64,000 nucleotides of DNA from a virus (IMGVR_UViG_2877794441_000003:2815-66814), one strand, 5' to 3'; positions 7,652 to 64,000 are shown, counted from the stretch's first letter. Notes: generated by a model from the letters alone, not told the origin. Translations and numbers: made by a program.

Positions 7652-10582
7652 TCAGTATGGATTCCTCTTCCATCCATATGCTGCCTCGCCCGCATCAACG
7701 ACGGGGCCGTACCCAGCGGCAAACTCGTCAGCGATCTGCTCCTTGACGGCCTGCACGAGCACCCTCAGGCGCCCGTCCGGATCGGTCCTGGTCTCCACCT
7801 GACTCTGGCTGTAGTTTTCAATGGTGACCTGATGGATTACTTGGCTGGTCTGCGCTCCGCCGCTCTGCGCCGAAGACTGCGTCGTAACAGCCGAACCTCC
7901 GCCGCCAGCCACCGATACCCGCTCGTTCGAGTTGATCGCCTCCAGCAGCGCCCGGTTACGCTTGGTCGCTGCGGCGTTGACTACGAACTCGCCGTCGCTG
8001 AGCCTGGCCATGATGCTGTCGGAGGTGCCGGTACCGGCGCCGGACACGTAGCCGCCGGTGGCGAACCCAGGAATCACGGCCAGGCTGGATGCCAGGGCCG
8101 TGGTCGAAGTCAGCGCCGCCGCTGCGGGCACGGAGTTGGCGCCCAGCGTTGCAAGGGATGCCATCGCCGCAGCCGGGGCCCAGGCGGTGGCCGTGGTCCC
8201 AGCCAGGATCATGCTCTGGCCAGCAGCAGCCGTACCCAAGGTGGCATTCAGCGCCGCATTCAGCGCCATCTGCACACCCATCTTCACGAAGCCCGCGAGG
8301 ATGTCGCGCACGACGCTACCGGCGATGTCACCCAGGTTGCTGAACGACAACTGCCCATCCATTATCGCGTCGGTGATGTCGGTGGAGATGTTGTTGAACG
8401 CGCTGGAGAAGATGTACTCCGTCTGCCCGGCGATGTCGCGCGCCTGGTTGCCGAAGTTCTGAACCGCCGCCGTCCACCCGTTGATAGGGTTGAGCATGGC
8501 CTGATCCATCATCGCCCAGCCCTTCTGCAGGGCTTGAAGCCTGGCCGGGTTGGTATCTTCGAGGATCTTTATCTGCTCTTGGATGGCTGCACGCTGTGAG
8601 GCGTTCTCCGCCAACCTGAGGTTGTCCTGCAAGGCGATGATCTCATCGTTCATCTGCCGCTCGAGCTGAACTCGCTGGCGGTACCGGTCCGCCTGAAGAT
8701 CTCCCATGCCAACAGAGTTGGCTTCAACCCTGTAGCCTTCCTCTTCAATGGCCAGCCGGCGGTTCACCTGCGCTCGATACTGCTCCGCAGCCGTGAGCCC
8801 TTGGGCACCCTTTAACGCCGCGGCATAATTGATCGAAGCCTGGGCCAGCGCCTTGCTGTACTCCTCCTGCGTGATCTTGCCCTTGGTCAGCGCCAGGTCG
8901 AGCTGGCCCTGCTCCTTGGTGAGGGCTCGGGCGGCCTGGGCTGCTGGGTCGTACTGGCCGTATAGGCGGGCGAAGGTGTTTTGCGCTTCAGCTAAGCCGT
9001 TATTGTTCTCACGAGGCGTTCGCTGGCGGTCCTTCTTAGCCTCGCGCTCCTTGATATCCGCGATTTCGGTTTCGATGTTCTTGCGAGACTGCGCATACTT
9101 CGCCTCTTCAGTGGCCGTGAACACGCCAGCAGCCATGGCTTTTTCACGGGCCTTGTCGAGGTCGGCCAGTTCTTTGTTGAGCCGCTGAGTCTGAGTCAGC
9201 GAGCTCTTGTAAGTCGTATCCAGGTCCTGCAGGCCTTTTCTGCCTTCTTCCTGGATGCGGCGCCGCTTCTCTTCATCTTCGAGGGTTTTCGCGTTGGTCT
9301 GCTGAATTCCCTGGCGCTGCTTCAGTTCCGCCTGAAGACTGGCTATCTTCTCCTTGGCGTCGTTATCCTCAATCTCTGTTCCAACAGTGCTCTGCAGGTA
9401 GGCAATCTTTTGCTGCAGCCTTGTAATGGCCTTTTCTTCGCTCTCAACGCTTTTACGGCCGATGCTGGCAAATGCGTCCAAAACTTCGTTTGTGGCATCT
9501 TTTATGTTGAGCCACCCACGCTCTATCGAGCCAAGGTTTTCGCGAATCTTCGCGGTTCGCTGACCCATTGCCTCTGCATAGGTCCGCTCCGCCAGGTCAG
9601 CAGCGCCAACAGCATTGCCCTGGTCAGACAAGGCCTTGATTTGGGCATACACCGAAGCGGTCAGGAACCGGTATTTCTCATCCAGCTCGACGATGCCGGC
9701 GACCGGATCTTTGCCAAGCTTGATGAATTCAGCGACCGTTTCCTCTATCGCCTTGCCCGTGACGCGCTGCATCTCCAAAGCCGTCGTCGTTATCAGCTTG
9801 AAGTTTCCAGTCGTGTTCTCGCCGGCAGCAGTTAGCTGGGCCAGTGCGCCTGCAGCTTGTCCAAACGTGCCCGTCACCTGGTCTGCCGACTCTGCCAGGC
9901 TGATCAGTTGCGCTTCGGATGCCTTCGAGAAGTTACCGGTCAGGATCAGACTGTTGCGCAGAGCGTCGGACTGCTCAGAGCCTTTGTAATAGGCAAGCGC
10001 CAGGGTGCCAGCGGCGGCTGCAGCCACGGTGAACGGGTTTACCAATCCGAGAACATAGCCGCCCAAGGCCTTGGCGGCGGGCCCGATACCGCCGAACATG
10101 TCTTTGAGCTGGCCGCCCTGCTGCAGGAATACCGTCAGCGGGGCTTGTCCGCCCTGCAGGCTTACGGCAATGTCGGTGAACTGCGCTGGCACGCCGCGTA
10201 ACGCCGCTTGATAGGCTTTTGCCGACATACCTGCCTTGTTCATGCCCTCCGACGCCTGGCCGATGCCTTCGCGCATATCGTTGATGCGCTGGGTGTACTC
10301 GACGAAGGTGTCGCTCTCGACGATGCCGGCCTTCTTGTACTTCGCCAGCTTCTCCTGCATGTCGTCCAGGCGACCAAGCGCGGCAACAGTTGGGTTGATC
10401 TGACCCAGCAGCTGAGAGAGCTCTTTGCGCTGATCATCCAGGCTGCTGCTCACTCCATCGGCCGATGATGCTGCCGAGTCGCCGGCGCGCTCCATGCGCT
10501 CAAGGGAGCTGCTCAGGTCATCCGCATTGCGCTTTGCGCCCCGCGAGTCGATCGTTACCGCCAGACGGGATTCCTGCGCCAT
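7652..10582 (-). CDS. Tail tape measure protein (lambda family)
   Basis: ~976 aa from MAQESRLAV; Ala/Gln-rich helical; VFLQQGGQLKDMFGG motif; FATGGYVSGAGTGTSDSI C-terminal motif. Confidence 0.93.
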   Translation of the reverse strand: MAQESRLAVTIDSRGAKRNADDLSSSLERMERAGDSAASSADGVSSSLDDQRKELSQLLGQINPTVAALGRLDDMQEKLAKYKKAGIVESDTFVEYTQRINDMREGIGQASEGMNKAGMSAKAYQAALRGVPAQFTDIAVSLQGGQAPLTVFLQQGGQLKDMFGGIGPAAKALGGYVLGLVNPFTVAAAAAGTLALAYYKGSEQSDALRNSLILTGNFSKASEAQLISLAESADQVTGTFGQAAGALAQLTAAGENTTGNFKLITTTALEMQRVTGKAIEETVAEFIKLGKDPVAGIVELDEKYRFLTASVYAQIKALSDQGNAVGAADLAERTYAEAMGQRTAKIRENLGSIERGWLNIKDATNEVLDAFASIGRKSVESEEKAITRLQQKIAYLQSTVGTEIEDNDAKEKIASLQAELKQRQGIQQTNAKTLEDEEKRRRIQEEGRKGLQDLDTTYKSSLTQTQRLNKELADLDKAREKAMAAGVFTATEEAKYAQSRKNIETEIADIKEREAKKDRQRTPRENNNGLAEAQNTFARLYGQYDPAAQAARALTKEQGQLDLALTKGKITQEEYSKALAQASINYAAALKGAQGLTAAEQYRAQVNRRLAIEEEGYRVEANSVGMGDLQADRYRQRVQLERQMNDEIIALQDNLRLAENASQRAAIQEQIKILEDTNPARLQALQKGWAMMDQAMLNPINGWTAAVQNFGNQARDIAGQTEYIFSSAFNNISTDITDAIMDGQLSFSNLGDIAGSVVRDILAGFVKMGVQMALNAALNATLGTAAAGQSMILAGTTATAWAPAAAMASLATLGANSVPAAAALTSTTALASSLAVIPGFATGGYVSGAGTGTSDSIMARLSDGEFVVNAAATKRNRALLEAINSNERVSVAGGGGSAVTTQSSAQSGGAQTSQVIHQVTIENYSQSQVETRTDPDGRLRVLVQAVKEQIADEFAAGYGPVVDAGEAAYGWKRNPY

Positions 10583-13122: not shown

Positions 13123-13530
13123 TCAGTAGGCCCGGTATGGGATCGACACGTTGACCTGGTACCAGCCATGGCCGTCATCGCCAATCGTCGCAGCCGATGC
13201 CGCGTAGCAATCGAATGGCCAGGTCGGGTCGCTGTAGAACTCAAAGTGCTGCACCAGGGTGTCGGCGGCCTTGGTGATGACCAGGGAGCCCTTGTAGCTG
13301 GGGACGAACAGCTGAATCATGATGATGCCGGTGCGGCGCACGCATGGGCCGATACCGGTCTCTGTGGCGCTTGATAGCCCGGGCACATCCGCCAGCCTGG
13401 CCCAAATGGGCTTGCCGGCCGGGTTGAACGGCCCTTTCGGATTGTTCGGATAATCGACAGCGTCAGCAGGAATGCCCGCCCACTGCGTCATGCGGCCAGT
13501 GACGATGGCTCGGATTTGTTCGAAGGTCAT
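13123..13530 (-). CDS. Tail terminator protein
   Basis: 135 aa; GIIMIQLFVP and WYQVNVSIPY motifs; position before tube gene. Confidence 0.75.
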   Translation of the reverse strand: MTFEQIRAIVTGRMTQWAGIPADAVDYPNNPKGPFNPAGKPIWARLADVPGLSSATETGIGPCVRRTGIIMIQLFVPSYKGSLVITKAADTLVQHFEFYSDPTWPFDCYAASAATIGDDGHGWYQVNVSIPYRAY

Positions 13531-13925
13531 TTGTCGAAGGCCTGTGTCGCGCCGTAGAAGGCGATGCCGTATATGCCTGCTGGAGCCTGCCGTGAGTGGC
13601 CGTCCTCAAGCGCGCCGGCGTATGCCAGGTTGTTCTGGATGTAGGTGACGGTGTATGGCTCAAGTCCAGACAGCACGCTCTCACCTCTGGCGACCGTCTC
13701 TTGGCCACTCTTGTCGTAAGCGTCGAGGGAGTAGTAGACAGGCGAACCGATGCTGACGATGTTGTTCGCCAGGAAGCGCCCGGTGTCCACAGGTGACCGT
13801 AGAACGATCTCCCCAAGCATTGCCAGGGTGATCGAGCGATGCCGCTCGGCCAGGGCATCTTCCACCAATCCGATGAACGCCGACGGCGGCACGCTCCAGG
13901 CGCGCCCTCCTCTCTGCCTGGCCAT
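13527..13925 (-). CDS. HK97 gp10-like neck/tail completion protein
   Basis: SPVDTGRF and NNLAYAGALEDGHS motifs. Confidence 0.8.
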   Translation of the reverse strand: MARQRGGRAWSVPPSAFIGLVEDALAERHRSITLAMLGEIVLRSPVDTGRFLANNIVSIGSPVYYSLDAYDKSGQETVARGESVLSGLEPYTVTYIQNNLAYAGALEDGHSRQAPAGIYGIAFYGATQAFDK

Positions 13926-14311
13926 TACGCCTTCCTCAACTGCAGGTCATGGTGCACGCCCGCAGGGTCGCCGCCCACACGCACGATTCGATAGCCCTTG
14001 GCGGGCATACCGAGGATACCGACGTTGCCTGTCGTCTCCACCAGGTGACCGATGTCGGGCCTTCCGGCCACTTCGTTAGTCAGCGCGATCAGCTGGATGT
14101 CGCCGAACTTGATATTCAGACCGTCCACCCTCTTGTCATCGTACTCATGGAACACGCCGCGCCCTGCGTAGATCACCGGCTGAGCCGTTGTTTCCTCGGT
14201 CACCGGATCGAAGACGCCTGGACCCATGTATTCGCCCGTGAAGGCGGTCACCGACTCCGCAAAGACGTCATCGAATAGCTCCCCGAAGATTTCCTGCATC
14301 TCGTCGCGCAT
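13925..14311 (-). CDS. Head closure / head-tail joining protein
   Basis: 128 aa, synteny in neck cluster. Confidence 0.6.
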   Translation of the reverse strand: MRDEMQEIFGELFDDVFAESVTAFTGEYMGPGVFDPVTEETTAQPVIYAGRGVFHEYDDKRVDGLNIKFGDIQLIALTNEVAGRPDIGHLVETTGNVGILGMPAKGYRIVRVGGDPAGVHHDLQLRKA

Positions 14312-15299
14312 AGTTCGCCCTTATGGTGTACCGGGCCTGGCACCGGCAGTTCGCGGTTTCGTCCCAGCCGGCGCCCAAAGCGCGGTCGCCCGGGTAGCGC
14401 AGCAGCGCGCCTGAGTTGGTACTGAACGGCTCGCCAAGCGCCCGAGTCTGTCCCTGCATGCCCGCGTGGCTGTTGCGCACCTTCTCGTCTCGCCTGGTCT
14501 CCCAGTCCTTGACGATGGCTTCCCGCGGTAGCCCGCGTTCGACCAGTTGCTCATAAACCCGGTCACGGCCAGCGCTGAACGATTCCAGCGCCTCTGTGCG
14601 GGCGATCATCTGTGCATGGGTCTGCAGCAGGCGGTCGGCGTAGCGCCCGGCGATGCGGTCAGCATCAACGCTGTTGACTGGCGCGCCCGCCTTCAGCGCC
14701 CGCATGACCATGGCGTCGAATCGCTTGTCGCGACGCGTGCGGGCGAGGTACTTGCGCAACTGCTCGGGATCGCCGCTGCGCAGCTGGGTGCGGGCATCGG
14801 CAACGTATTGTGAAAAGTTGCCCGGGAGCCCGACCGTACCACCTGTTCGCCGACCGGTTTGCTTGCTCACCCGGCCGGCCAGATCCAGGGCAATCTGCCG
14901 TGGGCTTCGACCGGCCTGGAGACCTGATGAAACCGTAACGCTGATGCCATCGACTTGATCCATGGCCATCTGCGCTTTCAGGTTGGCGATGTGCTGCGCC
15001 AGCCATGACTGGGCGCCATCGGCATTCACGTCCAGCTCCTGCCTGCCCAAGCTGCGCGGCACGCTGCTCACCTCTGCCTTGGCGCCGGCCATATAGCCCG
15101 AACGGATCAACTCCATCAGCGCAGCGAACACCCCGACCGCGAGCATATCCGCCAGGGCGGAATCGTCTCGCGTCGCGATGAGGCGCTCGATCTCGGCGAT
15201 GGTGGCCGCGTCCAGCGTTGCCCGAATCTGGTCAAGGTAGGCCTTGGCCATGGCCGGTTCCATGCTCTCAATCTGCCGGATGAGCTCTCCCTGGTTCAC
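14268..15299 (-). CDS. Head morphogenesis protein (MuF-like)
   Basis: GTG start NQGELIRQ; IARTEAL, WETRRDEKVRNSH and YPGD...NCRC motifs of MuF family. Confidence 0.85.
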   Translation of the reverse strand: MNQGELIRQIESMEPAMAKAYLDQIRATLDAATIAEIERLIATRDDSALADMLAVGVFAALMELIRSGYMAGAKAEVSSVPRSLGRQELDVNADGAQSWLAQHIANLKAQMAMDQVDGISVTVSSGLQAGRSPRQIALDLAGRVSKQTGRRTGGTVGLPGNFSQYVADARTQLRSGDPEQLRKYLARTRRDKRFDAMVMRALKAGAPVNSVDADRIAGRYADRLLQTHAQMIARTEALESFSAGRDRVYEQLVERGLPREAIVKDWETRRDEKVRNSHAGMQGQTRALGEPFSTNSGALLRYPGDRALGAGWDETANCRCQARYTIRANYARRDAGNLRGAIR

Positions 15300-15817
15300 A
15301 CGACCACCACTGCTGGCAGCGGGCACCGCAGCACCATGATCGGCGCCAGGATGTCGTTGATGATGCCGACGACGGGCTTGTTCGGCTGGCCGTCGACATC
15401 CTCAGGGCCGAAGAACTCGGTTTCAAGAGGCCCTACCTTGGCCCGTTTCACGGCCTTGGAGGCGACGTAGTCAGGGTTCAGACTGCCCGGTTTCACCAGT
15501 TCACGCAGCGCGCCTTCGTAGACTGCCTGCTCGACCTCTCGCGGCACCGAGCCAGCGTCTATTGGATCGCCGTTGCGGTCTGTAGCACCTTCGCGCGGCC
15601 ATTGCAGCGCCTGGGCCCTGCCGCCAACCTTGCGCCCTGGGAAAGACAGGACGCAGCCTGTGGTGGGCAGCTGGGTGCCCAGGCCGTCGATGTAGGCTGA
15701 GGCTCGAGCCAGCGCCGCTTCCTTGTCGGCCTGAGTAGCAGCCGCCCAGGCGGCATTGCCACGGGCCTGGTGGTAGGCGTCAGCGCCAGCCACGGTACCG
15801 TAGTAGTCAGCCATCAT
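15296..15817 (-). CDS. Head-tail adaptor (DnaT-like ssDNA-binding family)
   Basis: YYGTVAGADAYH and QALQWPR motifs. Confidence 0.75.
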   Translation of the reverse strand: MMADYYGTVAGADAYHQARGNAAWAAATQADKEAALARASAYIDGLGTQLPTTGCVLSFPGRKVGGRAQALQWPREGATDRNGDPIDAGSVPREVEQAVYEGALRELVKPGSLNPDYVASKAVKRAKVGPLETEFFGPEDVDGQPNKPVVGIINDILAPIMVLRCPLPAVVVV

Positions 15818-15856
15818 CGCTCTCGAATAAGTGGGCGGAGAACCGCCCGGGGGTTA

Positions 15857-16237
15857 TTACGGGTGCTTGGCCAGCTCGGCCTGCAGCTCTTCCAGGGTGA
15901 CGTCGTCGCCGACATCAATGCCCTTTTCCTTGAGCTTGGCGATGGCCTCTTCCTTGGCCTTGGCTTCAGCCTCGATCAGGCGCTCTTGCAGGGTTTTCAG
16001 GCTGGAGTTCTTGCCAGCCTCGACACCCAGCGCCTTCAGCTTGGCGAACAGCGCTTCCTTGTCGCCTTCGTCGGCCTTCGGCGCAGTGCCGGAGACCTTC
16101 AGGAAGTCCAGGCGGGAGGCCAGCTTGTGGCCAGACTCGCTCAGCTCTACCTCGCGGGATTCGCCCGGCCCGACGAACACCACGCCAGTGGCGGTGTGCA
16201 CACCCTGCGGCGCCTTGGAGTTGTTGGTCACTTTCAT
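15857..16237 (-). CDS. Hypothetical head-associated protein with two HeH-like repeats
   Basis: KLKALGVEAG..SLKTLQERL and KLKEKGIDVG..TLEELQAEL repeats; directly after capsid gene. Confidence 0.55.
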   Translation of the reverse strand: MKVTNNSKAPQGVHTATGVVFVGPGESREVELSESGHKLASRLDFLKVSGTAPKADEGDKEALFAKLKALGVEAGKNSSLKTLQERLIEAEAKAKEEAIAKLKEKGIDVGDDVTLEELQAELAKHP

Positions 16238-16249
16238 GGTGATCTCCTA

Positions 16250-17209
16250 TCAGGCAGCCGGGGCGGTGATTTCGTCGAGGTACGCGAAAGCGCCTGGCAG
16301 GCGGATCTCGGTACCGCCGGTGCGGGCGATGATGCCCGTCTCGAAGCCCATGATGGACTTCTGGCGTGGCGCCAGGACGCGGCGAGGCATCGGCAGGTGG
16401 AAGCGGACCACCTCCGGGTCCTTGCGGTAGGCAACCAGACGACCACCGCCGTCCTGGGAGGCGTTGCGGGCCTCGCGCAGCGGCTGAATGTCCAGCGCCT
16501 GGCCGGTCTCGGCGGTGTAGATGTTGTTGCGGCGGATGAACTCCAGCACGGTCATGAAGCCGTCACCAGCCCCCATGCGGCGGGTGGCCAAGTCACGGAA
16601 GGCGTCTGGCGGCATGCGCAGGGTGTCCGCCCATTCCACCTCACCGGTGTTGGTGCGCACGCTGCTAAGGACGCCGTTGATGTCGGCCAGGATCTGGTCA
16701 ACGGTCTTGCTCGCCCAGAAAGTCGAGCTGCCGGTGCCGGTTGCGGCCGCGTCAGTGCGGGCAACGATGGTGCTGTTCAGCAGGCCGGTCCAGTTCTTCT
16801 CGGTCGAGCCGCGCATGGCGATGTCGTTCAGCAGGCGCTCAACCTTGTCCGCGGCGCTCATGGCCTTGGTGTCGTTAAGGTTGACGCCATACAGAGCGGC
16901 CTGGTTGATTTCTTCCAGGTTCCACTCCCAGCCGGAGCCGATCATGGCGAAGTCGTGCGACGCCTGATCACGGGTCACCTGGTTGAACGGCATGTCGGTA
17001 CCGGCGCCGCTGAGGAACTTGGCTTCGCCGGCGGTATCGACGGTGAAGAAGGTGGTGCCGATAGCCCACGGCTGGCCTTCGGTCACGACCGGCACGTGCG
17101 CGGCGTAGTTGAAGGCTGGGTAGCGGCGTTGGTAGACGCGGGTCTCGATGTTACGGCCTTGGGCGATAACGAACGGGAGCGCCGCCTGAGCGTCTTCGAA
17201 GCGATTCAT
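16250..17209 (-). CDS. Major capsid protein (DUF2184 type)
   Basis: 319 aa; GWEWNLEEI and RTGGTEIRLPGAFAY motifs; follows decoration and scaffold genes. Confidence 0.85.
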   Translation of the reverse strand: MNRFEDAQAALPFVIAQGRNIETRVYQRRYPAFNYAAHVPVVTEGQPWAIGTTFFTVDTAGEAKFLSGAGTDMPFNQVTRDQASHDFAMIGSGWEWNLEEINQAALYGVNLNDTKAMSAADKVERLLNDIAMRGSTEKNWTGLLNSTIVARTDAAATGTGSSTFWASKTVDQILADINGVLSSVRTNTGEVEWADTLRMPPDAFRDLATRRMGAGDGFMTVLEFIRRNNIYTAETGQALDIQPLREARNASQDGGGRLVAYRKDPEVVRFHLPMPRRVLAPRQKSIMGFETGIIARTGGTEIRLPGAFAYLDEITAPAA

Positions 17210-59267: not shown

Positions 59268-59765
59268 ATGAAATATCACAAGCTCAAAGCCGGTGAAGCG
59301 AGCGGCACCTACGTCATGGAATCACCCGTCACCGAAGCCGACATCCTGCAGATGGCGCAACAACTGGCCATGAGTCGCCTATCTAAAGGCCGGGCCCTGA
59401 CTGAGCCGAAGCAGGTCTTCAGCCACCTGCAAACACTGTTGCAGTACCATGAGTATGAGGTCTTCGCTCTGCTGCTGCTCGATTCCAAACACCGGATTAT
59501 AGGCTTTAGAGAGCTGTTCAGAGGCACCCTGGATGGGGCTAGCGTGTACCCGCAAGAAGTGGTCAAGATCGCCTTGGAACACAACGCCGCGGCCCTCATT
59601 ATGATTCACAATGATCCCTCCGGAGACCCGGAGCCCAGCCAAGCGGATCGCACGCTTACCACCGTCCTCAAAAACGCTTTAGACATGGTCGGCACCCGAA
59701 TATTGGATCATGTGGTGGTGGGTCATAAAGGCTGCGTGTCATTGGTCGAACAGAGCTATCTATAG
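59268..59765 (+). CDS. radC: RadC / JAB domain protein
   Basis: EVFALLLLDSKHR, GTLDGASVYP, HNDPSGDPEPSQAD and ILDHVVVG. Confidence 0.88.
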   Translation: MKYHKLKAGEASGTYVMESPVTEADILQMAQQLAMSRLSKGRALTEPKQVFSHLQTLLQYHEYEVFALLLLDSKHRIIGFRELFRGTLDGASVYPQEVVKIALEHNAAALIMIHNDPSGDPEPSQADRTLTTVLKNALDMVGTRILDHVVVGHKGCVSLVEQSYL

Positions 59766-60102
59766 AAACCTTCTTTATCATTCTCCATTCATCCGATGGC
59801 CTGCACCAGACCTTGGTCGGTGTGGCCCATCGACATCAGTTGCTGCCGCTTCAGGAGAGGTGTCATAAGCATCATTCACCTTTCTTTTTTTTGCTATTTG
59901 CCTTGTCGGCATTCTAGCAGCCTGTGCTGCCGCCGGGCTTATAGGGGGGGTCATACTTCGCACTCTGCTACTGATTGCCCTGCTGCTAGCCCGCTGGATG
60001 TTCGGTAGGCTAGAGAAATGCCTGACAATGTCGCCTCAGTGCTGCACTTATCCTAACAGCAGACCTGGGCGGGAGATTTTCGCCGCCGCCCCGGTTTGTC
60101 CT

Positions 60103-60771
60103 TTATTTTACTAAGCTGAGTTCGGACTTTGGCTCATCTGGTGTGATCCAGCGGACTTCGATGCGGCGCTGCTGGGCGTCCTCCGGCGCGATACCGGGTA
60201 TGGGCTGTGAGTCACCATAACCGGCCACCACCACACGTCTCGCCGTAGCAGGATCGAGATTACCAACGATCAGCTTGCGCGCTTCACGAGCACGAGCGGC
60301 GGAGAGAGTGAAGTTGTCGTCGTAGACCGTACAATTGGCTTCGAAGTTGGTCACTGGACGCAGCACCGGTAGGTTGTCGGTATGGCCTTCTATGTAGACC
60401 TGAGCACCACGGAACTGCGCCAGAAACTGCGTGACCGCCGCTTCGATGCTTTGGAAGGCTTCGCGGGACTGTTCAGTGATGCAGGCACTGCCGCGACCGA
60501 ATACACCGTCGCGCAACGTCAGCTTCTGCGCCTCCAGGTCCAGTGCCACCAGGCCGGCACCGGCGGTGCCTTTGAGCGAGTCCTGCAAGGCCCCGAGCAA
60601 GTGCTCGACCTTCTGCCGCTGGCTGGCACTGCTCTGGGCCTGTTCCTGTTGGTACTTGAGGTCCGAGTAACTCTTCTGTAGCACCGCCATCACCAACAGC
60701 AACATGACCACTGCCATGACTCCGGCCATCAGGTCGGCAATTGACACCCATTCATTCGGTTTGTCTTTCAT
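60103..60771 (-). CDS. zorB: ZorB/MotB-like protein (TM Asp + OmpA-like peptidoglycan-binding domain)
   Basis: WVSIADLMAGVMAVVMLLLV TM with conserved Asp; IEGHTD, NFTLSAARA, GYGDSQP and RRIEV OmpA-like motifs. Confidence 0.75.
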   Translation of the reverse strand: MKDKPNEWVSIADLMAGVMAVVMLLLVMAVLQKSYSDLKYQQEQAQSSASQRQKVEHLLGALQDSLKGTAGAGLVALDLEAQKLTLRDGVFGRGSACITEQSREAFQSIEAAVTQFLAQFRGAQVYIEGHTDNLPVLRPVTNFEANCTVYDDNFTLSAARAREARKLIVGNLDPATARRVVVAGYGDSQPIPGIAPEDAQQRRIEVRWITPDEPKSELSLVK

Positions 60772-60782
60772 CGCCCGTCACC

Positions 60783-62732
60783 TCACAAGGCCGTTTCGAT
60801 CTGCACCGCAGTCGGCTGCGCACGGTCGAGGACATGGAGCTGGGCAATGATCTCGCGAAGTGACTGGCTAATCTCACCGCCGGTGTGGCGCTGCTGGTTG
60901 TGCTGGACAACGTTGCTCAGCACTTCCAGGTTCTGATCGATCTCTTGCAGACTGCGACCGATCATGTCGACCCGCGCGGCCAGTGCATCCACAGCAGGTT
61001 GCAGCGGGCTGCTGTGTTGCATCGTCATCAGCTGTGCGACCAGCCCCTTGATTTCGCTGGCGGCCAGCTCGGCCTGTTGAGTGACCCCTTCGTAGCGACT
61101 GTCGAGGGCGACCATGCGCCGGCCGCTTTCGGAAACGGCCTTGAGGCCCGAGAGGATTTTTTCACGCAGGTCGCCCACCAGGTGGGTCATGCCTTCGACG
61201 TTGACTTGCAGGGTTTCACTGGAACCCTGGAAGCTGGCATGGGCATTACGTTGCAGGTTCAGCGATTCCTCGTTGGACTTCTTCATGCCCTCCATGGTCT
61301 GGCCTACGTTGTTCGACAGGCTGTTGACCGCCGAGGAAATGCCCAGCGTGGCTTCGGACAGGCTGGCGGACATCTGCGTCATGTTGTCGGTGAAGCTGCT
61401 GCCCATCAGGCCAATGGTCTCGCCCAGGTCTTGCTTGAGATGACCCAGCACGCCGGCGACACCCTCCTTGAAGTCAGCAATGGCTTGCTGCAGGTCACCT
61501 GCCGAGGCGCCGATGGTGCCCGCGGCGCTGGCCATCTGTTCAGCCGCGCCGGAAATGGCTGCAAGGTTGCGGCTGTTACTGTCGATCAAGTGTTCCATGG
61601 CCTGGCGCGTGGCTCGACCATCTTCAAGCTGTTGCTGGTTCTGCTCGCCGTGCTCCTGCAGTCGGGCATCGATGGCGCCCAGTGCAGTCAGCGTCTTCTC
61701 GCCGGTGCTGTTCAACGTGTGCAGCGCCGGGAGGGCACTTGCCAGTGTCTTGCCGCTCGCTTGCTGGGCCTGCAGGACGTCCTGCCGGACCTGGTTGCCG
61801 GCCTGGGCTTCCTGTACCAGGGCTTGCCTGGTCTGGTTGCCGGCCTGGGTTTCCTCTACCAGGGCCTGCCTGATCTGGTTTGCGGCCAACTGATCCTTCT
61901 GCAGTTTCTGCAGATTCTGATTGCCAGTCTGTTGCTCCTGCAGCAGCCCCTGCAACGTCTGGTTGCCGGCTTGCTGTTCCTCCAGCGACGCTTTCAGGGG
62001 CAGCAGCAAGGCGTCGATGCTGGAGCGGTTGTCCGCGAGCGCCTGCTGGGTCGTGGCGGCGTAGTGCTTGAACAGGCGTGCCTGCAGCTCCAGCAACTGC
62101 CGTTGACTCTCGTTCTGAGCGGCAAGGTTCTGATCAAGCCGGCCCAAGGTTTCGAGCAGCGTCGCCTGCGCTTGCTGGCGTTCGCCCTGGCGTTGCAGGC
62201 GGCTGCTGTCGAAGGCCTGCTTCATCTGCCCGACACACCAGCGCAGGCGCCGCTCTTCGTATCCGTTGCTGGCGGCATAGGCTTTGAGCAGCAGGAAGGC
62301 GAGGATGCCCCAGGTCGAGGTCTTAAACTTGGTACCCAGGCCTTCCATCATGCCCATGAGGTTGGTCATGGCATTGTCCATGCCGCCCCCGGCACTGGCT
62401 TCGACCAGAATCGTCGAGGCCTTGTTCAAAGCGATGCCCAGGCCCAGGAAGGTACCCAGCAGGCCGAGGATCAACAGGATCCCGGGCATGAACTCGATCA
62501 TTTTTTCGCCGGGGCTGGCCACCGCGGCACTGATCTCGTTCACTGAGCCGTGCTCCACGTCCAGGTCGTCCTGGCCGCCGCCGTTCCACTTGCGTTCCCA
62601 GGTCTGTTCCCGTGCCCCGCGCTTCAACGCAATCACGGTCACCAGCGAAAGGATTCCGATCAGCCCGGCGAACAACAGTTGTAGCGGGTCTGCTGATGGC
62701 AGCAGAAAGGTGAGGATCTCCTGAAAATTCAC
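60783..62732 (-). CDS. zorA: ZorA/MotA-like protein with long cytoplasmic helical tail
   Basis: Three TMs including PGILLILGLLGTFLGLGIAL and KFKTSTWGILAF, then ~500-aa Gln/Ala/Leu-rich tail; directly upstream of MotB-like gene. Confidence 0.72.
   Translation of the reverse strand: MNFQEILTFLLPSADPLQLLFAGLIGILSLVTVIALKRGAREQTWERKWNGGGQDDLDVEHGSVNEISAAVASPGEKMIEFMPGILLILGLLGTFLGLGIALNKASTILVEASAGGGMDNAMTNLMGMMEGLGTKFKTSTWGILAFLLLKAYAASNGYEERRLRWCVGQMKQAFDSSRLQRQGERQQAQATLLETLGRLDQNLAAQNESQRQLLELQARLFKHYAATTQQALADNRSSIDALLLPLKASLEEQQAGNQTLQGLLQEQQTGNQNLQKLQKDQLAANQIRQALVEETQAGNQTRQALVQEAQAGNQVRQDVLQAQQASGKTLASALPALHTLNSTGEKTLTALGAIDARLQEHGEQNQQQLEDGRATRQAMEHLIDSNSRNLAAISGAAEQMASAAGTIGASAGDLQQAIADFKEGVAGVLGHLKQDLGETIGLMGSSFTDNMTQMSASLSEATLGISSAVNSLSNNVGQTMEGMKKSNEESLNLQRNAHASFQGSSETLQVNVEGMTHLVGDLREKILSGLKAVSESGRRMVALDSRYEGVTQQAELAASEIKGLVAQLMTMQHSSPLQPAVDALAARVDMIGRSLQEIDQNLEVLSNVVQHNQQRHTGGEISQSLREIIAQLHVLDRAQPTAVQIETAL
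61731..61982 (-). repeat. Six 42-bp (14-aa) repeats in ZorA-like tail
   Basis: EEQQAGNQTLQGLL/QEQQTGNQNLQKLQ/KDQLAANQIRQALV/EETQAGNQTRQALV/QEAQAGNQVRQDVL/QAQQASGKTLASAL. Confidence 0.75.
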
Positions 62733-64000
62733 GCTGCCACCTCGACCAGGCGGCTGGCACGTTCACGGCTGGCTTCTTCGAAGATGTTGGCGAAATCGAT
62801 GATCAGGCTCTGTTCGTCTTCGGTCAGCTCTTCCCAGCGTTTGCCATGCTGGGCACAGTCGATGATGATCATGCCGACCTCCTGGCTGTCGGTCAGCAGG
62901 TACGCATCGTCGGCGAAGTCTTCGGGCGCTTTCTCGAGCACCTGCAGGAACCCCTCAGCGGCGTAGACATAGTTGCGCATTTCCTGGTTGCGCTTGCGCA
63001 GTTGATCCATCTGCGCCTTGAGGGCCGGCAGACGGGCCTGGATATCGGCCAGCGCGGCCTTCTCTTCGGCAGAAGGTTCGCCGAGGTTCTGGCTGATCTT
63101 CAGCTGGCGCTCCTGAACCTGCAGCTTGGCCACCGACTCACTGAGGGTTTTCCAGTCCTTCTCCTGCTGCTCCAGGTTGCAACCCCAGGCCATGATCAGC
63201 TCTTCGAACACGAACGGAATCAGCTTTTTGCCGAAACGTGCGGCGATCACTTCATCCAGGCGCACCGCCTGGGCATCGCTGACCTGAGGTTTGGCCTTGA
63301 GCAGCTCTGAGGCGATCTCGACCAGGAACAGATCGTCACGATTGATCGCGTCCAGGTCCTGGGCGTGAATCAGTCGCTGCTCAGTGTCCTTGAGCAGTTT
63401 TTGCGAGGCGCGCAGGCGCAGGTAGTGGTCGAAATCGCTGATGTTGTTGTTTTCCAGCACCTGCTTGATACGCGTGCTCAGCTGGGCGTACTGGGTGATC
63501 AGGGTTGCCAGGTCCAGGGCACGGCCAGCTTCGCCGCGCACGTCCTCGCGGGCTTCGCGCAGCACTTCCTCGTGGGTCGCCGCCTGCGCCATTTCTTCAT
63601 CGTTCAAGACCACGTCGCGCAAGATTTTGGCCTTGGCGATGGCCCACTCGACGGCAGCCTTGACCTGCTTGGCCAGTGCGGTCTTTTCCCAGTTCAGCAA
63701 CGCCTCCAGGGCCTTGTCGAAAGCCCGGATGGCCGTGGCCACCCAAGGGAAGGTCGGCAAGGCGACGGTTGCCCATTCGGCGGCGATCTTCAGCGCCGGC
63801 CTTACGACCGTGGCGATGAAGGGCTTGACCTTGTTCCACACCTCCTTGACCTTGCCGACAAAGGATTCGGCCTTGGTCGCCATCCAGTCCAGTGCATCCC
63901 TGGCCTTCTCACGTACGGTATCGTACGTGGTGCGCACCACCTCTACCGCCGCCGCACCGACGCTCTTGATGGCGCTCCAGCAATCCGAAAAAAAACCCAT
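62729..64000 (-). CDS. Unknown 423-aa helical protein, coupled to zorA-like gene
   Basis: ATG at the last base of the window; TGA overlaps GTG of the downstream gene; amphipathic Trp-rich N-terminus and coiled-coil middle/C-terminus. Confidence 0.8.
   Translation of the reverse strand: MGFFSDCWSAIKSVGAAAVEVVRTTYDTVREKARDALDWMATKAESFVGKVKEVWNKVKPFIATVVRPALKIAAEWATVALPTFPWVATAIRAFDKALEALLNWEKTALAKQVKAAVEWAIAKAKILRDVVLNDEEMAQAATHEEVLREAREDVRGEAGRALDLATLITQYAQLSTRIKQVLENNNISDFDHYLRLRASQKLLKDTEQRLIHAQDLDAINRDDLFLVEIASELLKAKPQVSDAQAVRLDEVIAARFGKKLIPFVFEELIMAWGCNLEQQEKDWKTLSESVAKLQVQERQLKISQNLGEPSAEEKAALADIQARLPALKAQMDQLRKRNQEMRNYVYAAEGFLQVLEKAPEDFADDAYLLTDSQEVGMIIIDCAQHGKRWEELTEDEQSLIIDFANIFEEASRERASRLVEVAA

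Follow-up and report, generated by a model that had tools for sequence, protein, structure and literature searches.

A four-gene cassette that joins a ZorAB-like motor to an AAA+ ATPase and an all-helical protein is probably a Zorya-related type of phage defense

In the 64,000-nucleotide (nt) stretch of viral DNA analyzed here (IMGVR_UViG_2877794441_000003:2815-66814, called the window throughout), positions 60,103 to 64,000 hold three genes of an operon whose first gene lies beyond the end of the window. Together, the four genes encode an AAA+ ATPase, a protein of 423 amino acids (aa) that we call U423, a ZorA-like protein, and a ZorB-like protein. This cassette is well supported as a genetic unit, and we hold with moderate confidence that it is a Zorya-related anti-phage motor system with a non-nuclease effector module. 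A preliminary description of the window had read the genes as a separate ZorAB-based system that uses a different effector. Our analysis supports this view, as the A/B pair best matches ZorA and ZorB and the soluble partners differ from those of Zorya. The components are listed below; the genes within the window are taken from the open reading frame (ORF) list and the translations.

L002:9038-9979 (CP134602.1, beyond the window), same strand as the U423 gene: gene 1, AAA+ ATPase, 313 aa, 21 nt upstream of U423
62729..64000, minus strand: gene 2, U423, 423 aa
60783..62732, minus strand: gene 3, ZorA-like protein, 649 aa, GTG start
60103..60771, minus strand: gene 4, ZorB-like protein, 222 aa
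62729..62732, minus strand: GTGA stop/start overlap of the U423 and ZorA-like genes, which couples both genes
59766..60102, no strand assigned: non-coding spacer of 337 bp between the end of the ZorB-like gene and the convergent RadC gene

As first described, the three genes in the window are co-directional on the minus strand (ORFs of 423, 649, and 222 aa), the GTGA at 62729-62732 joins the first stop to the second start, and 11 nt separate the ZorA-like and ZorB-like genes. The overlap at the U423/ZorA-like junction is not a chance feature, because an overlap of 4 nt or 1 nt is kept there in 41 of about 50 related loci. The roughly 340 bp after the ZorB-like gene had been said to contain no plausible effector. 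Indeed, the operon-strand ORFs in this 337-bp spacer are all 61 aa or shorter and carry no family signal, and there is no further operon gene in it. A simple scan found no terminator-like site in the spacer, and scanning for promoters and terminators was uninformative.

The other end of the operon is missing from the window. The source record, a 66,814-base IMG/VR “provirus” that is cut exactly at the ATG of U423, ends at position 64000. Since the provirus boundary was set at this ATG, the operon is incomplete in the window. An identical 423-aa protein is found in 80 blocks of the contig collection, including the 6.3-Mb chromosome CP134602.1 (locus L002), and the sequence past position 64000 could be retrieved from these identical contigs. 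It holds the AAA+ ATPase gene and no canonical zorC/D/E/F/G gene, which confirms the earlier suggestion that more genes might lie upstream. Of the three-gene operon first proposed, the grouping of the three genes stands and the gene count does not: the unit has four genes, with that of the AAA+ ATPase first. The right end of the provirus (64000 = G000:C1:66814) therefore splits a four-gene operon inside an integrative island, and this end of the provirus call looks like a gene-boundary artifact, not a true phage end.

In several classes of Proteobacteria, the four genes are passed on together as a unit. Scanning one genome per species yielded 54 U423 loci, in Gammaproteobacteria (Pseudomonas, Enterobacterales, Vibrio, Shewanella, Moraxella, and Haemophilus), Betaproteobacteria, one Sphingomonas, and one Cloacimonadota metagenome-assembled genome. 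When the co-occurrence of the 423-aa gene with zorAB was checked by tblastn, the set was found, with all genes on the same strand and in the order AAA, U423, ZorA-like, ZorB-like, in 51 of the 52 loci that are not cut by a contig end. The exception is the Sphingomonas locus, which keeps just the ZorB-like N-terminal motif. A profile search of 1.84 billion representatives resolved the U423 family into 189 clusters at 50% identity, and nearly all the complete ones are 400-460 residues long. Even two of the most distant relatives (E-values of 3.5e-21 and 2e-25) are encoded between an AAA gene and a gene for a protein of 535-649 aa; an OmpA-domain gene comes next in one of these loci (L071), and a ZorB-like N-terminus is found at the contig end in the other (L073).

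Within species and genera, the cassette is sporadic. All four genes, in order, are present in 1 of 5426 complete Escherichia coli genomes (VREC0761; NZ_LR536430.1, 1802308-1807162), where they lie between an integrase and a CP4-57-type island carrying a type I restriction-modification system, and U423 occurs in 11 of 401 Pseudomonas species representatives. Beyond chromosomes, searches of plasmids and phages found U423 on one megaplasmid and on one contig filed as “UNVERIFIED: Bacteriophage sp.” The latter (MT835507.1, from human feces; L074:8105-16407) carries the complete cassette and a JukA homolog, and it is either phage-borne defense cargo or a misfiled bacterial island. Two other loci have unusual surroundings or structures. 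The distant cassette on the metagenome contig L071 (6969-10999) has two dynamin-like GTPase genes and a VgrG-like (Phage_GPD) gene in its flanks. In Alishewanella jeotgali (L058:9308-16481), an insertion of ~1.4 kb interrupts the ZorA-like gene, leaving the N-terminal piece at 9329-9574 and the rest from 10960; just downstream lies a second, weakly related A/B-like pair (ORFs of 745 aa and 263 aa, 13456-16481) that may be a canonical Zorya system.

The A/B pair is built like the Zorya motor, with transmembrane (TM) Pro/Thr motifs, a tail of ~490 aa, a membrane Asp, and a peptidoglycan-binding domain. The MotA-type motifs reported for the second gene of the window are at residues 91-98 (LLGTFLGL) and 137-142 (KTSTWG) of the ZorA-like protein, and the helical tail, put at about 500 aa, extends over residues about 158-649. 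The protein thus has the core feature of ZorA, MotA/ExbB-type TM helices followed by a long helical tail. Its AlphaFold2 model places TM helices at about 16-39, 74-113, and 118-156, with a predicted local distance difference test (pLDDT) score of 80-95 in the membrane part, and continues after TM3 as very long helices spanning 158-649, a cytoplasmic tail of ~490 aa. Matches in family libraries were to ZorA models only; these were weak and restricted to the TM2-TM3 region (PADLOC ZorA1, E 2e-7, 27.8 bits). Pfam MotA_ExbB (PF01618) was not matched at E 0.1. A search of the PDB with the single sequence found no ZorA; the profile of the family (36 members) alone did so, and its best match was the ZorA chain of the type I ZorAB complex 8vvn (E 1.6e-8). 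No MotA, PomA, ExbB, or TolQ chain was matched by this profile. Foldseek returned only A subunits of 5:2 motors, with ZorA (8vvn, 8qyd, 8vvi) first and PomA/MotA lower.

Family members of the ZorA-like protein are 447-704 aa long. Within the tail, a Q-rich stretch differs in length between them, and a segment at about 380-540 is conserved. At residues about 245-330 (window positions 61750-62000), the Q-rich stretch forms imperfect repeats such as QAGNQT.Q and QTGNQNLQ, and tail length may be tuned per lineage.

The ZorB-like protein is more readily recognized. Its best matches are PADLOC ZorB1 (E 2e-19) and ZorB3 (E 4e-16); Pfam OmpA is matched above its cut-off (E 7e-10), and domains of MotB, PomB, and TssL are matched in the PDB. 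The core features of ZorB are present: one N-terminal TM helix with Asp13, within the MotB-type motif WVSIADLM that had been noted earlier (residues 8-15 of the 222-aa protein), and a C-terminal OmpA-like peptidoglycan-binding domain, also as first described. Asp13 and the peptidoglycan-binding motifs NxxLSxxRAxxxR and RRVE are invariant in 28 ZorB-like sequences. In the same family, two periplasmic cysteines, C97 and C147, are nearly invariant across the 28 members and may form a disulfide within or between the peptidoglycan-binding domains. No canonical ZorA was found elsewhere in three genomes that host the cassette, and the cassette is thus not dependent on a standard Zorya system.

The soluble half of the cassette consists of the ATPase and U423. 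The ATPase matches Pfam AAA (E 6e-26), PADLOC IetA (E 2e-29) and TRIP13 (E 4e-16), and, in the PDB, the domains of AFG2/VCP/Cdc48 (E 5e-36). Walker A and B are intact, and an aromatic pore loop 1 and a second region of homology with Arg fingers are present; the motifs GPPGTGKT, FFDEAD, ESK[FY][MV]G, FATN, and SR(I) are invariant or nearly so among 35 sequences. Judged by these motifs, the protein is a single-domain, classic-clade AAA+ ATPase with the features of a substrate-threading, Cdc48/VCP-like unfoldase. Its C-terminus is a variable, probably disordered linker that ends, in every family member, in an invariant Leu-Leu-Gly (LLG). By analogy with the C-termini of other AAA+ rings, this motif could be a docking peptide. 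No peptidase is encoded within the cassette in any locus.

U423 resembles no known Zorya effector, in agreement with the preliminary description. Across 44 members, it matched no Pfam, PADLOC, or NCBIfam family, and no model of ZorC, ZorD, ZorE, ZorF, or ZorG. It is soluble, with no TM segment, and its AlphaFold2 model (pLDDT 75) is all helix with a long helical hairpin at 262-358. Foldseek searches of the PDB and BFVD with this model returned nothing at E <= 0.1, the profile search of the PDB found nothing, and the ESM Atlas held only “hypothetical protein” clusters. In a wide VIA-align search, the generic helical hairpin 262-358 was all that matched, and its scores (Z up to 10.7) do not rise above the noise expected for helical proteins. 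The weak matches to ClyA, AhlC, and IpaB are no evidence that U423 forms pores. U423 is not a detached piece of the ZorA-like tail (hhalign probability 0.3%). In RefSeq, the proteins of the E. coli cassette are named “ATP-binding protein”, “hypothetical protein” (both U423 and the ZorA-like protein), and “OmpA/MotB family protein”.

Some properties of U423 do emerge from its own sequence. Mean column identity is 49%, a conservation equal to that of the motor. Residues 1-125 form a basic (about +7 across the family), Trp-rich, strongly amphipathic arm, with a mean hydrophobic moment of 0.40 vs 0.21 +/- 0.04 in shuffled sequences (0 of 500 shuffles reach it), and residues 126-423 form an acidic body of about -20. 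The first 47 residues are modeled with low confidence, yet Met1-Gly2 is invariant.

Zorya systems were reportedly described by Doron in 2018. Three types are distinguished, I (ZorABCD), II (ZorABE), and III (ZorABFG) (PMC8565338; PMC11946911; PMC11890865). Type I adds ZorC, an EH-signature protein, and ZorD, a Snf2-type helicase/nuclease; type II adds the HNH endonuclease ZorE; and type III adds ZorF (DUF3348) and ZorG (DUF2894). The cassette shares with them a MotA-type A subunit with a very long helical tail, a B subunit with a membrane Asp and an OmpA-like domain, soluble partners in the same operon, and a location in defense islands. It differs in having a classic AAA+ unfoldase and the all-helical U423 instead of ZorC/ZorD, ZorE, or ZorF/ZorG, in encoding these soluble partners upstream of the A/B pair, and in an A subunit that is remote in sequence, far below the cut-offs, and seemingly devoid of the β-hairpin/Ca2+-site domain discussed below. 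For type I, neither U423 nor the ATPase matched a ZorC or ZorD model. For type II, no cassette protein had an HNH or ZorE match. For type III, DUF3348, DUF2894, ZorF, and ZorG were absent from the PADLOC and Pfam matches listed, which for the U423 family scan comprise all 11 matched PADLOC families and the 25 commonest Pfam families, the others having matched at most one member. More generally, scans with Pfam, PADLOC, and NCBIfam found no nuclease domain, and no enzyme domain besides the ATPase, in the cassette proteins.

Two other systems invite comparison. IetAS, reportedly from Gao et al. in 2020, is said to consist of the AAA ATPase IetA and the subtilisin-like protease IetS. The cassette ATPase is likewise a single-domain classic AAA protein, with IetA as its best PADLOC match. 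However, the cassette lacks the IetS protease, its partners are U423 and a ZorAB-like motor, and the likeness stays at the general level of the AAA domain, as Cdc48/VCP/AFG2 match the ATPase equally well. With Trip13-HORMA of the type III cyclic-oligonucleotide-based antiphage signaling system (CBASS), the cassette shares a single-ring AAA+ remodeler beside a small non-enzymatic partner, which may also be threaded from a flexible N-terminus. Here, however, the partner is all-helical and has no HORMA domain, and the cassette is without a cyclase or nucleotide signaling; the analogy is one of mechanism only. Literature searches on a fourth Zorya type, on Zorya-like systems, and on ZorA/ZorB with AAA+ found no relevant description, and the Zorya papers, a paper on MotAB evolution, and an “embedded defences” preprint make no mention of such a cassette. 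PADLOC v2.0.0 has no U423 model and gave no confident Zorya match for the cassette. The cassette is probably an undescribed, non-nuclease type of phage defense related to Zorya.

A mechanism can be proposed with Zorya type I as the model for the motor steps (PMC11946911). By analogy with that system, a phage that disturbs the envelope would cause the ZorB-like dimer to anchor to peptidoglycan; ions would then pass Asp13, and the ZorA-like pentamer would rotate with its tail. The conserved segment of the rotating tail would engage the soluble module of ATPase and U423. Our committed guess is that U423 would serve the AAA+ hexamer as adaptor and substrate at once. If the hexamer threaded U423 from the flexible N-terminus, the basic amphipathic arm would be released and would work on the inner membrane where the phage enters. 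Alternatively, the AAA+ hexamer may be brought to the entry site, where it would unfold a phage protein. In either variant, infection would be stopped with the DNA uncut.

Several points weigh against a Zorya-related defense motor and should be set beside the evidence given above. We infer the anti-phage function of the cassette from its context and gene content, and the effector step, with U423 as a substrate that acts on the membrane, is a guess from sequence features. The similarity of the ZorA-like protein to ZorA in sequence is limited to the TM2-TM3 region, and its NCBIfam scores for antiphage_ZorA_1 and antiphage_ZorA_2 (22.7 and 24.3 bits, about E 1e-5) compare with cut-offs of 190 and 100. 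The Foldseek E-values are weak (about 1e-2), with TolQ and ExbB close behind ZorA. Canonical ZorA is marked by a membrane-proximal β-hairpin and a Ca2+ site between TM1 and TM2, a domain that includes E86/E89 and R108 in EcZorA (PMC11946911; PMC12505986). In the model of the ZorA-like protein, the TM1-TM2 loop of ~35 residues has two short helices and no strands; because this loop is short and strandless, the ZorA-specific cytoplasmic β-hairpin/Ca2+-site domain appears to be missing. Finally, the counts of defense genes in the flanks, given below, are raw and have no random-locus control.

It is also conceivable, though in our view unlikely, that the motor itself is the effector. An unplugged A5B2 channel would then dissipate the membrane potential, leading to abortive infection, and the ATPase and U423 would serve to assemble, disassemble, or reset the tail. 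The ATPase is the sole enzyme in the cassette, and Trip13, whose PADLOC model it matches (E 4e-16), resets HORMA proteins in CBASS; long coiled-coil tails in a protein of such variable size (447-704 aa) may need chaperoning. However, Zorya I and II do not depolarize cells and act via recruited effectors (PMC11890865; PMC11946911), canonical ZorA tails of like length assemble without a dedicated ATPase, and both the conservation of U423 (49%) and its amphipathic arm exceed the needs of a chaperone.

The genomic surroundings bear on whether the cassette defends against phages at all. In Stutzerimonas stutzeri, a WYL-WCX regulator is encoded 28 nt upstream of the cassette on the same strand. WYL proteins account for 9 of the 48 nearest upstream ORFs, and the others include HsdR, HsdM, SNF2, or Fic proteins. 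Regulators of the WYL/BrxR type directly upstream are typical of defense operons. Among 127 further flanking ORFs, PADLOC identified NERD+UvrD, WYL, DRT, type I specificity subunits, JukA/JukB, PDC-S04, and MADS components. A function of mobile islands in the envelope that is not anti-phage, such as exclusion of conjugative elements, island maintenance, or a response to envelope stress, would place the cassette in the same cargo slots as defense systems. Such a function would suit a cassette that is always found in mobile or variable regions, encodes no nuclease, has one copy on the “UNVERIFIED Bacteriophage sp.” contig, and owes its defense neighborhood to counts made with no control. We nevertheless judge it improbable, given that all annotated profile matches of the A subunit are to defense ZorA models and its best structures are ZorA chains, that WYL/BrxR-type regulators stand directly upstream, and that diverse known defense systems adjoin the cassette in unrelated hosts.

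Very improbable, finally, is an A/B pair that is an ordinary MotAB, TolQR, or ExbBD paralog or a Zorya system decayed by loss of zorC/D/E: TolQ and ExbB do come just behind ZorA by fold and the best NCBIfam matches of the ZorB-like protein are MotB-family models, but MotA_ExbB is not matched at E 0.1 nor any MotA/PomA/ExbB/TolQ chain of the PDB by the profile, ZorA proteins are the only long-tailed, ~700-aa proteins among the solved A subunits returned, no TonB/TolA or flagellar genes are adjacent in the L002, E. coli, and S. stutzeri loci, and decay is contradicted because 51 of 52 loci retain the full four-gene set with coupled reading frames.

The integrative-island setting described for the window is borne out by its genes. 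Downstream of the operon lie genes for RadC, a Gp3-like protein, YqaJ, DUF932, YfjJ, a helix-turn-helix protein, AlpA, and DUF3987, which are the backbone of a CP4-57-like integrative island. On the other side of the cassette, in L002, a separate unit begins ~320 bp upstream of the ATPase gene with a divergent BrxR-type WYL regulator. It comprises this regulator, an 89-aa ORF, a JukA homolog (PADLOC E 3e-53), and an unmatched 382-aa protein, and beyond it are a WYL-WCX regulator and a 1255-aa helicase.

59268-59765, plus strand: RadC gene, convergent to the operon (from the ORF list)
L002:5312-8717 (CP134602.1): unit of the BrxR-type regulator, 89-aa ORF, JukA homolog, and 382-aa protein

JukA is found near the cassette in six loci only (L002, L010, L011, L015, L026, and L074), and it is therefore a neighbor, not a component. 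The 382-aa protein encoded after JukA has no PADLOC JukB match, although JukB models exist, and the two could be a Juk variant with an unrecognized partner. The ORF beside JukA in L010 was considered as a counterpart of the 382-aa protein and rejected, as the two have no similarity. Another defense candidate could be a pair of genes in four S. stutzeri loci (L065-L068), where, about 6-8 kb upstream of the cassette, a protein of 701-734 aa with two AAA domains is encoded directly before a WYL-WCX regulator on the same strand. Short contigs from the RNA libraries of four studies map to the cassette genes; one of these contigs spans the U423/zorA junction, and another two extend beyond the end of the window in the direction of the ATPase gene. 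Carry-over of DNA is possible in these libraries, gaps in coverage carry no information, and the contigs are a weak sign that the cassette is expressed.

From a biological perspective, the cassette would extend what ZorAB-like motors are seen to do. To our knowledge, the Zorya types described to date all act, in the end, by attacking DNA. A tentative generalization, to which we give limited credence, is that ZorAB-type motors are interchangeable sensors of envelope breach, which here might drive protein remodeling by an AAA+ ATPase instead of a nuclease. The rotating tail would then pass the amphipathic U423 to the unfoldase, for a defense directed at proteins or the membrane where the phage enters, and immunity would have its first known case of a rotary ion motor coupled to an AAA+ unfoldase. 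The cassette is small and self-contained, at ~4.9 kb; as both E. coli and a Pseudomonas near the P. putida group carry it, it can be tested directly in laboratory strains, and it would add one system to defense-annotation tools. If our reading is true, the ZorAB-like motor is a sensor module that is portable, and quite different effectors can respond to a mechanical signal that comes from the envelope.

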